Positions 16,785 through 20,000 of a stretch of DNA of 20,000 bases are shown here, one piece after another. Source of the stretch: an uncultured virus (IMG/VR IMGVR_UViG_3300030044_000012) (taxonomy: Duplodnaviria > Heunggongvirae > Uroviricota > Caudoviricetes); IMG/VR virus record IMGVR_UViG_3300030044_000012. One strand, 5' to 3'. Under the pieces are notes generated by a model. It did not search any database. It was not told where the DNA came from and saw only the letters and a list, made by a program, of their open reading frames with translations. The position numbers were made by a program, and so were the translations under genes. The stretch's first letter is position 1. Every line of letters starts with the position of its first letter.

Positions 16785-17489
16785 ATGAGGCATTTAGTGA
16801 TTGGCTCCAAAGGTCAGGTGGGCTCAGCCCTGCTTGAAGTTCTTTCTGAGAAGTGTGAGGTTTTTGACATTGACTTCAATGAAGTGCTGCCTTTCGCCGG
16901 GAAGTTCAATGTGCTCCACATATGCATTCCCTACAATGATCTGTTTGAGGCGGCGGTCACAACATACATTAAGCAGTACCTTACTCCTCAAGGATTGGTC
17001 ATTATTCACTCTACAGTGCCCGTAGGCACGTCCACGAAGTTAAATGCGGTTCATTCCCCCATCCGAGGTGTCCACCCGCACCTAGCGGACGGTATTCGCC
17101 GATTTCTAAAATTTTTCGGTGGACCGAGGGCGGCTGAAGCTGCTTGGATGTGGCACAGTATTGTGGGTGGGACGGCCAGCGCCAGCCCCAAGGCCGAGGA
17201 CACCGAAGCTCTGAAACTGTGGGACACAACCTACTACGGCTGGAACATCGTATTCGAGAAGGCTGTCAAAGCGTACTGTGATGAGCACAGGCTCAACTTC
17301 GACATCGTGTACACACAGGCCAACCGGAGCTACAACGAGGGCTATGCAAATTTAGGCATGGAGTCCGTTCGTCGCCCGGTGCTGAAACACTATCCGGGCA
17401 AGGTTGGCGGACATTGCGTCATTCCGAATGCAAAGTTACTCGGCGGCGAAGTTGCTGATTTTATCTTGAAGAAGAACGAGGAATATTAG
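16785..17489 (+). CDS. short UDP-glucose/GDP-mannose dehydrogenase family protein
   Basis: Rossmann VIGSKGQVG, HICIP, IIHSTVPVGT, EALKLWDTT and catalytic VGGHC; lacks the C-terminal UDP-binding domain. Confidence 0.85.
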   Translation: MRHLVIGSKGQVGSALLEVLSEKCEVFDIDFNEVLPFAGKFNVLHICIPYNDLFEAAVTTYIKQYLTPQGLVIIHSTVPVGTSTKLNAVHSPIRGVHPHLADGIRRFLKFFGGPRAAEAAWMWHSIVGGTASASPKAEDTEALKLWDTTYYGWNIVFEKAVKAYCDEHRLNFDIVYTQANRSYNEGYANLGMESVRRPVLKHYPGKVGGHCVIPNAKLLGGEVADFILKKNEEY

Positions 17490-17518
17490 CTACCGGGTCT
17501 AGTGGACCCACGAAGCGG

Positions 17519-18074
17519 TTGTATCAAAAGTTTGAAAGAGATGGAGACAACAACTCCCTCTGCCCAGTCTGCGGTAAGGCTTTCAGCCTAAATGGAGTAC
17601 AAACCCATTGGAGGCTTAAACATCGTGGAGATGCTAATAGCGGGAGCGGTTGGAACCGTGGGCTAACTATAAACACAGATACCCGAGTGGCGGCTAACAC
17701 CTTAAATGCTACAGCGGGTTTGAACAAGTTCTACAACACCCTTACCCCTGACGAAAAATTAAAACTGAACGCTCGAAGAAGACCAAAAAACACAGCCAAT
17801 ATGGGAGGGGTAAGACGGGGCTCTGGTCGGGGTAAGAAGGGTTGGTGCCGAGGCTACTGGTGCGACTCCACATGGGAACTAGCTTGGGTGCTGTACAGCA
17901 CCGACCATAGTATACAATTCACCCGCAATACTGAAGGGTTCGCTTACACATTTGAAGGTAAGAGATACAAATAAAGCAGAGATGAAGCCGCTACTCAGTT
18001 ACGCGATAAAAACGTACGGTGATGACTTCGTGAATATGTATGGTGGGGAGTCCGGGAATCGGACCCGACTCTAA
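17519..18074 (+). pseudogene. zinc-finger + PD-(D/E)xK-type homing endonuclease, internally deleted and frameshifted
   Basis: C2H2 finger CPVC...HWRLKH; GKKGWCRGYWCDSTWELAW...FEGKRYK stops where Y-x-PDF...EIKG is expected; another frame continues KAEMKPLLSYAIKTYGDDFVNMY to TAA 18074. Confidence 0.6.
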
Positions 18075-18116
18075 GGATTTTCAGTCCCCCGCATCGACCA
18101 CGTTTGCTTACTCCCC
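18041..18116 (-). tRNA. tRNA-Phe(GAA), non-canonical, CCA encoded
   Basis: GGGGAGT/ACTCCCC acceptor + ACCA; D stem GCA/TGC with GG; anticodon arm GGGGA-CTGAAAA-TCCTT; T arm TCGGG-TCCGATT-CCCGG; 76 nt. Confidence 0.88.
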
Positions 18117-18193
18117 ATACGGAAATATACACGCCTCGCTGTTAGCGAGTGCTAGTAAATCGTTCCGCCGAGTTGTAGTTCTGGTAGTTCATT

Positions 18194-18340
18194 TCATTTC
18201 CTTAATACTTGTTCCAAAAGTCCAGCAATGTAAATCAACAAGCGAATAATTAAGACCGTCTCAGCAGACCACACCGAGGTTATCTTATCGGCCTCCGCCT
18301 GTGCTTCTACAGAGGAGTCAATCCTTGGAAAATGACTCAT
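18194..18340 (-). CDS. small protein (48 aa) with a hydrophobic C-terminal segment
   Basis: MSHFPRIDSSVEAQAEADKITSVWSAETVLIIRLLIYIAGLLEQVLRK; starts 3 nt after the stop of 18344..18571. Confidence 0.55.
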   Translation of the reverse strand: MSHFPRIDSSVEAQAEADKITSVWSAETVLIIRLLIYIAGLLEQVLRK

Positions 18341-18343
18341 GGC

Positions 18344-18571
18344 CTAAACAGTTACGTCATTAACATAAACAGTCACGTCATCAACAGCGAGTTCAGTGCC
18401 TGTCGGGAGGTCCAAATCCCCCTCCACAAACACAGCACCCGGAGGAAGCTCACCGATAGTTATCGGGATGCGGGTTTGGGTCGTCGGGCAGTGCAAGAAA
18501 AACAAAAGCCCTTCGCGAACCACTCGCCACCTCGGGCAACCGTTATACTCCAGAATGATTCCCTGTGCCAT
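18344..18571 (-). CDS. small hypothetical protein (75 aa)
   Basis: ATG preceded by GAAAGGAAAG; natural-looking sequence; lies directly 3' of the structured region. Confidence 0.7.
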   Translation of the reverse strand: MAQGIILEYNGCPRWRVVREGLLFFLHCPTTQTRIPITIGELPPGAVFVEGDLDLPTGTELAVDDVTVYVNDVTV

Positions 18572-18589
18572 CGTGCTTTCCTTTCAAAC

Positions 18590-19597
18590 TCAAGGGCACC
18601 TTGCGATGCCCTTAAAGGGGACGTAGCGGTTTCCCGCGTCCCTCCACCACTTGCATTTTACAGATGCAAGAAACTGACTGGGAGTCACCCCATCTACCGC
18701 TCCACCGGCTTTTACGAAGCCGGAAACGTCTCCATGGGAGCCACTTGGTTTACGTCCAAGAACGGAGCCGAATAGCTCTCAGAGACTAGTATAACACCTC
18801 TGAGCCCTCCTCGTCCACCACTTAGTTTACGTCTAAGAACGCCCGGTTTAACGACCTTACCGGGAACGGCGAGATTGTCGTTCTGCCTGCCGCCTAGTTA
18901 ACGTCTAGGAACGCTTGAAGCGTGAAGCGTGAGCATCCGGCTCTGCTAGTTTACCGGATACGCCGCACTCCCCAACTACACTAGCATCGAGAGGAGCCGC
19001 TCTTAGTAGGATTAACTAACCTACCCACCCACTACACCCTTTTTGTTTTAATTCGGATGGTCGCCTAAGCGGAGTAACCGAATGTTCTGTGGGCTCTCAC
19101 GTGTTACCTTACTCATCCTGAGTGTACCATAACGGCTCTCCAATGAGCAAGCTCAATATCAATGGCGGTTTATGTGACGCCGCCAAACACCCCCTAAGTT
19201 ATCGAATCGGGAAGACGCCCCTGAGTAACGAAGTCAGAGGGCTCGACATCTAATTCACGGAGTAGACACCACACCGACCCTATGTTACGAGTCCGGGCAG
19301 GACACGTCTCGTTAAGTTTACGTTCCAGAGCGGAACGGCCTTATTTTACCTCCAAAGCGAGAGGATCGCGAAGCCCCAACATACGATTCAGGACTAGCAA
19401 TATCTGCGGATGTTCTCAATACTATGGGCACCGTATGAACATGGTTAACGGCCTGTTTAAGCCACTGGCTCCAGACCTTACGATGTGGAGGCATCCGCAT
19501 ATTTTAGGCCGGGAGAGGAGGTCGCCTAACAACTGCCGTGCGTGCTACACAGCCTGACGACCCGCGTGCCTCCCGGTTGGGGTTCGCACTAAACCCC
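18590..19597 (-). ncRNA. putative large structured non-coding RNA (or RNA cluster), ~1 kb, family unassigned
   Basis: No credible ORF. GNRA-capped hairpins on the minus strand (AAGGGCAUC-GCAA-GGUGCCCUU, CGG-GAAA-CCG, AUC-GUAA-GGU), G-U-rich stems, long-range helices (19492-19499 with 19405-19412; CCGGGAG/CUCCCGG) and repeated loop motifs. Confidence 0.65.
18644..18914 (-). repeat. array of six stem-loops: GUU(U)-stem-N(C/U)GU(A/U)AA-stem-YG(G)
   Basis: Hairpins at 18650-18670, 18705-18723, 18744-18760, 18821-18837, 18842-18864 and 18893-18909 with compensatory stem changes (CUUGG/CCAAG, CUUAG/CUAAG, CCUAG/CUAGG). Confidence 0.85.
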
Positions 19598-19741
19598 GGA
19601 AATAATCTCTTTGGCAATCTGTTCGCGAACTAACGCGATAATCTCCTCGGCAACATCAGTCTGCCGTGGATTTGCACCCTTGGCGAAAACGTAGCTGTCA
19701 ATCTTCTCAACGACTCGCGTAACCAAATCCTTTTCTTCCAT
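19589..19741 (-). CDS. small hypothetical protein (50 aa)
   Basis: MEEKDLVTRVVEKIDSYVFAKGANPRQTDVAEEIIALVREQIAKEIISGV; GGAG RBS 6 nt upstream; not in the provided ORF track. Confidence 0.7.
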   Translation of the reverse strand: MEEKDLVTRVVEKIDSYVFAKGANPRQTDVAEEIIALVREQIAKEIISGV

Positions 19742-19757
19742 GGGGTTCTCCAAAACC

Positions 19758-20000
19758 TATGGCGGTTTACGGACTCCGCCAAACGCCTCTATGTTTACGA
19801 AACCGAGGAGGCTCGTCCTAGTTACGTACAGAATAACGGCCTACTACTATGGGTCGAGGCTAGACTCATCTGTTTTTACAGTGCAGCTAACTGTTTCACA
19901 ATTGACGTTGACCTTCTTAGGGGTCACCGAGGTAGCAAACATACCTAACCTGACTTATAGCTCAGGCCCAGCGTTCCGGCAGCTAACGGGTCGCCGAACG
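19758..20000 (-). ncRNA. second structured RNA segment related to 19162-19341 (continues beyond the window)
   Basis: Shares ordered motifs AGGCCGUU...ACGUAA(A)CU...ACGAG...UCGUAA(A)CAUAG...GYGUUUGGCGG...UAAACCGCCAU with the first region; further hairpins to the window end. Confidence 0.6.

Follow-up and report, generated by a model that had tools for sequence, protein, structure and literature searches.

The guanidine-II riboswitch consists of two hairpins, and the preQ1-I, SAM-II and guanidine-III riboswitches are small aptamers of the H-type pseudoknot kind. Marine metagenomes and T4-like cyanophages were the source of the first description of wcaG RNA, as a candidate riboswitch located upstream of exopolysaccharide and high-light genes (Weinberg et al. 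2010, PMC2864571). In two subsequent papers on cyanophage genomes it is merely listed, as far as their accessible text goes, and a literature search of limited extent returned no functional study of wcaG RNA and no report of a ligand; as such, wcaG has been an orphan riboswitch candidate since 2010. T4-type phages also carry PeSL cassettes, i.e., an early promoter with a stem-loop, which the accessible part of their description proposes to shuffle gene cassettes (Arbiol et al. 2010, PMC2839356). Here, we analysed an array of hairpins on the minus strand of a stretch of 20,000 nucleotides (nt), hereafter the window, from the uncultured virus record IMGVR_UViG_3300030044_000012 (IMG/VR; Caudoviricetes), and compared it with these systems.

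We conclude, with a probability of roughly 0.9, that this array is an expanded, divergent member of the wcaG family in which each hairpin is a building block of ~30 nt, and that it forms the minus-strand leader of an operon comprising a small open reading frame (ORF), a tRNA-Phe gene and a terminator in a jumbo phage from peat. The Rfam wcaG model matches the array above its gathering score, across hairpins H5 and H6 and a middle hairpin between them (Table 1). The architecture of the family, in which two similar hairpins, P1 and P3, with GUUUC 5' and GUGG 3' flanks are arranged around a further hairpin, P2, is found in H5, H6 and the middle hairpin; the flanks of H1–H4 are GUUC and YGG only. 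Since the Rfam consensus consists of two copies of one unit round a central hairpin, the array unit is the wcaG building block. The first-pass annotation of the window had read the array as a multivalent binding-site or sponge architecture; it is not an unclassified one, given this match and the result of R1, a model of the unit trained on 126 units of viral contigs that include neither the window nor its relatives. R1 finds H6 at 39.0 bits (E 1.3e-9) and H5 at 20.7 bits (E 3.9e-4). There was no second wcaG match in 17900–20000 (Rfam, E ≤ 10), and nothing else credible at this threshold, sX8 (20.6 bits) and flg-Rhizobiales (17.1 bits) both lying far under their cut-offs. The preQ1-I, SAM-II, guanidine-III and guanidine-II families were not among the Rfam matches of the array region.

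Units were defined strictly as GTT(T) followed by a perfect stem of 5–8 base pairs (bp) and a loop of 5–11 nt ending in AA. Eight minus-strand sites in the window fit this definition, i.e., H1–H6, which lie within 18647–18914, and two solitary units named after their positions, 19784 and 19188 (M19784 and M19188), while the plus strand has one. In 300 dinucleotide shuffles the minus strand held a mean of 0.27 sites (standard deviation 0.47, maximum 2) and never more than one per 300-nt span. The array is real and far above chance expectation, and its first-pass description is confirmed with two corrections. All six hairpins are present at the places given for them, with perfect Watson–Crick stems of 5–7 bp that all differ in sequence, and the claim that pairing is kept while the stem sequence changes is borne out. 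The claimed constancy of flanks and loop 3' end is equally found, with GUU or GUUU as the 5' flank and UAAA or UUAA closing the loops; four hairpins have UGG as their 3' flank, while H1 has CGG and H2 has CG. A fixed 7-nt loop, as had been proposed, applies to H1, H3, H4 and H6, but not to H2 (11 nt) or H5 (5 or 7 nt, depending on where the stem ends). The spacing is irregular, hence the array is neither a CRISPR nor a simple tandem repeat, again as originally read. Loop sequences among H1–H6 include ACGUUAA, ACGUAAA, UCGUAAA and CUGUAAA, and the loop motif CGTWAA occurs nine times on the minus strand in 18711–19799 versus four times in the remainder of the window. We also observed that the ACGU in the loops of H1, H3 and H4 is palindromic, which makes a kissing contact possible.

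The unit was followed into other genomes using a 17-base pattern taken from H6, which matched at least 120 stretches in viral contigs and at least 120 in 596 Gb of bacterial and archaeal genomes; the counts given here and for the cyanophage-type loci below refer to the matches listed. Rfam was run on 19 of the viral loci and identified 17 as wcaG at 78.4–102.7 bits, therefore the window copy, at 45.1 bits, is a divergent member of the family. By the unit finder, the viral loci hold no unit in six cases, one unit in 35, two in 69, three in nine and four in one, so that at least two units are present in 79 of 120; loops end in AA in 100 of 120 and the pseudoknot described below fits in 72 of 120. 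The corresponding values for the bacterial and archaeal matches are 1 of 120 with at least two units, 17 of 119 with loops ending in AA and 2 of 119 fitting the pseudoknot. This suggests that the latter matches arose by chance and that the motif, among the matches listed, is found only in viruses. Searched by blastn against 50,697 phage records, 17900–20000 matched nothing but a fragment of tRNA-Phe in a crAss-like phage.

The unit folds as a mini H-type pseudoknot, which is shown for the long-stem units. Of 128 unique viral-contig units, chosen by stem, flanks and AA loop end only, 76 can pair all three bases ahead of the UUU linker with loop bases one to three in strict register, compared with 15.8 ± 3.3 in a shuffled control (maximum 27 in 2000). 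Eight different flank:loop combinations occur, i.e., UGG:CCA, GAG:CUC, AGG:CCU, CUG:CAG, CAG:CUG, AAG:CUU, UAG:CUA and CGG:CCG. In a MAFFT alignment of 126 units (A1, from 129 rows less three that were clearly chance hairpins) the flank-loop helix is paired in 89.6% of cells, its middle pair being GC in 49, AU in 38, GU in 20 and UA in 9; the stem statistics of this alignment hold by construction, as pairing was selected for, whereas those of the flank-loop helix do not. About 12 of the 34 unit positions are invariant or nearly so, and the invariant 3' UGG has no partner inside the unit. The wcaG building block is a stem of 5–7 bp preceded by a UU(U) linker, with a loop whose 5' part pairs upstream of the linker and whose A-rich remainder ends in AA(A), followed by a 3' UGG. 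Helix 1 would have 3 bp and helix 2 5–7 bp; in such a geometry the U linker would run across the deep groove of helix 2, and the rest of the loop, rich in A, would cross helix 1 on its shallow-groove side. Pairing between the flanks below a UU bulge had been proposed for these hairpins at first; it fails in the wider family, where an N(-2):G(+2) pair forms in 12 of 126 units and the G:U pair is invariant. The flank-loop pseudoknot fits instead, and the U-rich bulge is better read as its linker. Within the window H5, H6 and M19188 fit the pseudoknot scheme (Table 1). A short-stem subtype (H1, H3 and H4; 5 bp, UU linker, ACGUWAA loop) was compared over seven distinct copies from the window and its relatives, in which all stem cells are paired and three of the five pairs change on both sides. 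We do not claim the pseudoknot as new, because the text layer of the wcaG consensus drawing in the 2010 supplement, from which the bases joined could not be read, already holds the label 'pseudoknot' (PMC2864571).

A search with the small ORF lying 3' of the array gave nine metagenome loci and three viral contigs, L130 being the window's own sequence. Three units lie directly 3' of TTGCAA-16-TATACT (-35 and -10 hexamers with the spacer in nt) in L135–L137 and L002–L004, where Rfam reports wcaG at 42.2 bits, and this site in L135 is the homologue of the promoter-like element P2 of the window. L132 and L133 have three units, namely an H1-type, an H2-type (by eye) and a long one, which lie ~190 nt 3' of TTGAAA-17-TATACT, and no Rfam wcaG match. 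In L134, six units (one by eye) are arranged in another order and begin ~10 nt 3' of TTGACA-18-TATGCT; its Rfam score is 41 bits, under the cut-off. H2-type copies are seen by eye in L132, L133 and L134, and the promoter-like -10 ends ~6–10 nt 5' of the first unit in L134 and L135. Both L131 and L138 keep the ORF and the tRNA-Phe, with coding-like sequence where the array would be and no units. With zero, three, three and six units in differing orders, the array is therefore an accessory leader of variable length, with gain, loss and reordering of its units. In the relatives of 231 kb and 140 kb, R1 finds units at the array locus only, two in each (E ≤ 0.01). The units behave as modules, in that their copy number runs from 0 to 6+, their order differs and solitary units exist. 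All ORF-bearing relatives with enough sequence have a tRNA-Phe gene on the 3' side of the ORF, and neither a terminator nor a promoter was found 3' of the array in the window, L133, L134 or L135. As a side observation, L132, L133 and L134 have two adjacent tRNA-Phe(GAA) genes after the small ORF versus one in the window, and the first copy in L132 and L133 is 79 nt long with a low Rfam score of ~29 bits.

The cyanophage-type wcaG loci, counted as unique loci, are organised differently. A same-strand ORF of at least 60 codons stops before the first recognised unit in 71 of 72 loci, with a median gap of 32 nt (quartiles 4.5–71), and a hairpin with a T-run follows the last unit after 14–28 nt (median 19) in 54 of 68. 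In 42 of 68 loci the terminator overlaps a promoter of sigma-70 type, whose -35 element lies in the hairpin, in its loop (TTGCAT in 25, TTGACA in 10), and is followed by a -10 element (TATAAT in 33), at a spacing of 17 nt in 41 of the 42; control searches found such terminators and promoters in 0 of 67 upstream sequences and 0 of 68 shuffled ones. The next ORF begins ~70–90 nt after the last unit and mostly encodes a nucleotide-sugar enzyme, judged from translations. In 12 of 56 loci there are complete tRNA genes no more than 700 nt away, and three more have partial tRNAs at the locus ends, a nearness that may merely reflect common variable genome regions. S-PM2 (L139) has an additional unit beyond the Rfam match, followed at a distance of 37 nt by an unannotated tRNA-Gly (record ~123000–123071). 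Taken with the window, these loci place the unit in 5' leaders as well as in 3' untranslated stretches and next to tRNAs. Many of the loci L005–L083 appear by eye to have more upstream variant units with a longer first helix, which neither Rfam nor R1 counts.

Small H-type pseudoknots can be aptamers, as preQ1-I, SAM-II and guanidine-III demonstrate. The array could be a tandem metabolite riboswitch, in which a unit or unit pair binds a small ligand and occupancy controls the downstream hairpins and ribosome-binding site (RBS) in the window and the terminator in cyanophages. The near-invariant positions of the unit, the terminator closely following the last unit and the nucleotide-sugar genes next to it all speak for this, as does the rating of wcaG as a riboswitch candidate in the accessible portions of Weinberg et al. 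(2010, PMC2864571). However, copy number varies from 0 to 6+ with the order shuffled, and the contexts are unrelated, ranging from a small ORF with tRNA-Phe in the window to the tRNAs at cyanophage loci. Furthermore, the terminator has a consensus promoter in and immediately behind it in 42 of 68 cyanophage-type loci, so that expression of the following gene need not require read-through. In the window and its relatives the array is followed by neither a terminator nor a promoter, and no antiterminator-type pairing of units with the variable terminator arms was seen by eye. We consider a metabolite riboswitch unlikely.

The differences in unit number and order among close relatives, and the missing array before the ORF in L131 and L138, could also be read at the level of DNA. 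The repeats and the adjoining promoter/terminator cassettes would then be mainly recombination sites that shuffle gene cassettes, as proposed for PeSLs, and in agreement with this the paralogous units M19784 and M19188 flank a 50-amino-acid (aa) ORF stretch that has no match in L132 or L133, and cyanophage-type units adjoin terminator-promoter cassettes that resemble PeSLs as described in the accessible text (Arbiol et al. 2010, PMC2839356). We rate this as very improbable, as the stems differ between copies while both stem and flank-loop pairing covary, which argues for selection on RNA folding and not on DNA identity, and all copies lie in the direction of transcription.

The features of the window are collected in Table 1. 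Its proteins include a family-A DNA polymerase and primase-like, portal and tail-fibre-like proteins. By DNA polymerase the closest isolate is Tunturi_5, a 309-kb phage of Tunturiibacter (Acidobacteriaceae), with 47% identity over 86% of the protein and the same gene order; judged from these sequences, the host of the window phage is probably not a cyanobacterium. Tunturi_5 gave no R1 match at E ≤ 1 and no match to the small ORF (P0001), both weak negatives, as an empty answer shows little. Between the array and this ORF, hairpins A and B have covarying counterparts in L135 and L134 (by eye) and neither has a U-run or promoter, and a CCCCUUU stretch could pair, by eye, with GGAGGG or with the RBS. 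The 75-aa ORF belongs to no Pfam or PHROG family and had no usable protein-atlas match; only eight clusters of hypothetical relatives were found, some on contigs of 310–413 kb, and its AlphaFold model has a pLDDT (predicted local distance difference test) of 57.8. Its product was considered as the binder of the array and dropped, a candidacy made less likely by the presence of the ORF in L131 and L138, where the array is missing. A 21-bp tandem duplication (90% alike) at 18345–18386 extends the C-terminus of this ORF, which ends ...DDVTVYVNDVTV, whereas most relatives end ...DVTV. Should promoter-like P1 be active, it would put H1–H3 in a leader of ~550 nt. The 50-aa ORF stretch had no blastn match in L132 or L133, though its flanks align, and with its two flanking units it looks cassette-like. 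A second hairpin family has three minus-strand copies at 19291–19265, 19210–19184 and 18291–18265, each with a short stem, a loop with GUAAC or GAUAAC and a 3' UGUGG; a fourth copy is possible near 19240, and one of the copies lies between the small ORF and tRNA-Phe.

Table 1. Features of the array and its surroundings in the 20,000-nt window. Promoter-like P1 and P2 are distinct from the wcaG hairpins P1, P2 and P3.
Feature	Position	Strand	Remarks
Solitary unit M19784	19760..19786	-	Paralogue of M19188; ~20 nt 5' of RBS of 50-aa ORF
50-aa ORF	19589-19741	-	GGAGA RBS; start ~20 nt 3' of M19784; ends in hairpin
Solitary unit M19188	19163..19190	-	6-bp stem; flank GUG can pair with loop CAC
Weak promoter-like P1	19121..19150	-	TTGCTC, 18 nt, TACACT; located by its correspondence in position to the strong promoter of L133; fails consensus scan
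H1, short-stem unit	18890..18914	-	5-bp stem, 7-nt loop ending UUAA, 3' CGG; counterpart in L133, L134 and L132
H2	18840..18870	-	6-bp stem, 11-nt loop ending UUAA; 3' end overlaps H3 5' flank
H3, short-stem unit	18818..18842	-	5 bp, loop ACGUAAA, 3' UGG
Spacer hairpin with promoter-like P2	18778..18817	-	7-bp arms 18804-18798 / 18784-18778, between H3 and H4
Promoter-like P2	-35 TGGACG 18817-18812, 18-nt spacer, -10 TATACT 18793-18788 after TG	-	Promoter scan
H4, short-stem unit	18741..18765	-	Kept as first unit in L135-type relatives
Rfam wcaG RNA (RF01761) match	18636..18731	-	45.1 bits vs gathering score 42, E 1.1e-5; H5 + middle hairpin + H6
H5, long-stem unit (wcaG P1)	18702..18729	-	7 bp; flank ACG can pair with loop CGU
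Middle hairpin (wcaG P2)	18679..18692	-	Rfam alignment
H6, long-stem unit (wcaG P3)	18647..18676	-	Near cyanophage consensus; flank CAG can pair with loop CUG
Hairpin A	18642-18617	-	GAAA loop; conserved
Hairpin B	18612-18591	-	GCAA loop; conserved
Shine-Dalgarno-like GAAAGGAAAG	18585-18576	-	Upstream of 75-aa ORF
Conserved 75-aa ORF (P0001)	18571-18344	-	3' of hairpins A and B
tRNA-Phe (GAA)	18041..18116	-	3' of 75-aa ORF
Terminator-like hairpin + T-run	17975..17992	-	Closes operon

Transcription of the region was assessed in two peat-labelled metatranscriptome runs using assembled contigs only, which show neither strand nor ends. A 274-nt contig at depth 3.4 equals 18624–18897 without mismatch, bridging promoter-like P2 and covering H2–H6, and contigs also cover the tRNA region at low depth; within 17000–20000 the uncovered parts and low-depth pieces are uninformative either way. 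The window edge is far deeper, with 19788–20000+ at depth 605 and 19784–20000+ at depth 71.5 in the two runs, both without mismatch, compared with depth 0–12 in the rest of 17000–20000. Both of these contigs stop at the 5' edge of M19784. Compared with L132 and L133, the stretch 19784–20000+ is non-coding by its indel pattern. By eye it is made up of more small hairpins or pseudoknots whose loops are of the CGUAA type, and it could represent a stable RNA of ~250–300 nt that is present in abundance. Two loose observations belong here. The contig of a relative has TGCTATACT ~17 nt 5' of an H1-type unit, and contigs of both runs break at 17972 with unrelated sequence on one side, just beyond the terminator-like site, so related genomes may differ after the tRNA-Phe unit.

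The positions of the units would also suit a structural element that needs no partner, i.e., pseudoknots acting as barriers or insulators at transcript boundaries and tRNAs, which would block exonucleases or, once the RNA is processed, a 5'-end-dependent RNase and stabilise the neighbouring RNA. Units do lie at the boundaries of transcription units, the first one just 3' of predicted start sites, as well as in 3' untranslated stretches before terminators and beside tRNAs; variable copy number is tolerated, and the conserved UUU and AAA could be explained by major- and minor-groove contacts of a triple-helix pseudoknot. However, this fold leaves the invariant 3' UGG unexplained, the 3' ends are already protected by the terminator hairpin, and the very deep RNA contig at the window edge ends just before M19784, neither including nor starting at the unit, although contig ends are weak evidence. 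We consider a purely structural role unlikely, if slightly less so than a metabolite riboswitch.

Tentatively, and at somewhat less than even odds, we favour a different role, that of repeated docking sites for one conserved putative partner, as opposed to a classical one-ligand riboswitch aptamer of fixed architecture. The units would be independent docking sites at the RNA level that work in varied positions, and the trans-acting partner would be a protein, or an RNA end, for instance a tRNA 3'-CCA that contacts the invariant UGG. Valency would follow from how many units are present, and binding would either decide the fate of the carrier RNA or titrate the partner. We favour this because the same conserved unit occurs in several positions and copy numbers and in the phages of distant hosts, and because the invariant UGG is otherwise unexplained. 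The multivalent architecture proposed at first may be kept as a live reading, and put- or EAR-type RNA antitermination, acting on polymerases from upstream, is possible. A T-box-like reading, with UUC as Phe specifier together with UGG, was set aside as a 30-nt unit cannot span a tRNA.

Several results count against our interpretation of the array, from its identity to its role. R1 gives H4 7.0 and H3 6.1 bits, which is noise level, and does not find H1 and H2; because R1 does not recognise them, H1–H4 are not counted as proven wcaG members, and they are tied to the family by shared features and adjacency only. The possible short-stem pseudoknot, CGU:ACG, never varies and hence has no covariation to back or contradict it. 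A lineage-wide test of the pseudoknot in free register exceeded permutation only weakly, with 22 of 24 rows showing at least three contiguous pairs versus 17.9 expected and the observed mean being reached by 39 of 2000 permutations; the 24 rows include one non-unit, hairpin B. The 274-nt contig at its depth of 3.4 could be DNA carry-over. With a terminator 14–28 nt on and mostly nucleotide-sugar genes behind it, the cyanophage-type locus has the look of a classical riboswitch, and the docking partner is putative only.

T-box leaders, RNase P and the ribosomal P-loop dock tRNA 3'-CCA ends. A bolder version of the docking idea, which we put forward as a speculation with quite long odds against it, is that wcaG-type RNAs would be open-ended chains of ~30-nt pseudoknot beads in triple-helix style, each with an invariant 3' UGG, instead of riboswitch aptamers built from two hairpins. 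The chains would lie at transcript boundaries and beside tRNA genes in viruses as unrelated as T4-like cyanophages and peat jumbo phages and dock a universal cellular partner. In its boldest form, and just as speculatively, UGG:CCA pairing would dock the tRNA 3'-CCA ends, with arrays holding or titrating these ends or the enzymes acting on them. On the same speculation, a single RNA region of many such beads would span ~1.5 kb, starting at 18.6 kb and running past 20.0 kb, and some of it is highly abundant in the peat metatranscriptome libraries.

These findings change how wcaG may be approached. The real unit of the family is a single small pseudoknot, its copy number runs from 0 to 6+ and its reach extends well beyond marine cyanophages, which suggests that wcaG is an extendable chain of tiny knots and not a fixed two-hairpin switch. 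Given a single-unit pseudoknot in 0–6+ copies, a wider range of phages and the cyanophage context, the question shifts from which metabolite is bound to what one unit binds or blocks, which can be addressed with a 30-nt RNA and with natural arrays of differing valency.

Among known systems, the small pseudoknot aptamers and guanidine-II resemble the array in their size of ~30 nt, in a pseudoknot with an A-rich strand and in sometimes occurring in tandem; the array differs in its mirrored topology, as the loop pairs with the 5' flank, and in having up to 6+ copies. The put and nut sites are phage elements near promoters. CsrB/RsmY sponges, lambda boxB and HK022 put share with the array the presence of several similar stem-loops on one RNA, whereas no N-like or CsrA-like partner was identified here; the likeness to CsrB/RsmY suggested by the first-pass annotation is one of layout only, as the loops of H1–H6 lack GGA. 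The upstream pseudoknot domain of the tobamovirus 3' untranslated region likewise chains mini-pseudoknots in a viral RNA with tRNA-related elements, but belongs to a eukaryotic RNA virus, has different units and is likened by description only. PeSLs, as the accessible text describes them (Arbiol et al. 2010, PMC2839356), combine strong sigma-70-like promoters with stem-loops in variable regions, as cassettes gained or lost among relatives. The element right after cyanophage wcaG fits this description in 42 of the 68 loci analysed here. The wcaG units themselves differ from PeSLs in that they have no U-run or promoter and in that their stems covary and form a pseudoknot; in the window no unit has a U-run and only promoter-like P2 sits in a spacer hairpin, and the cyanophage cassettes are separate, adjoining elements.

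The closest system remains wcaG RNA (RF01761), with which the array shares the unit itself, i.e., GUUUC, a stem, a loop ending in AAA and GUGG. It differs in scoring 45 bits against 78–103 bits in 17 cyanophage-type loci, in having six to eight units against two, and in that four window units are of the short-stem subtype (5 bp, UU linker, ACGUWAA loop) missed by R1. While cyanophage copies come after an ORF stop and before a terminator-promoter cassette, the window array lies in a 5' leader before a small ORF and tRNA-Phe, and its host is probably not a cyanobacterium. The 2010 setting of T4-like cyanophages and marine samples with exopolysaccharide and high-light genes is replaced here by peat-labelled runs, a polymerase like that of an Acidobacteria phage and a 75-aa ORF with tRNA-Phe. 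The array is thus new relative to known wcaG in four respects, namely copy number, the short-stem subtype, host lineage and position relative to genes.

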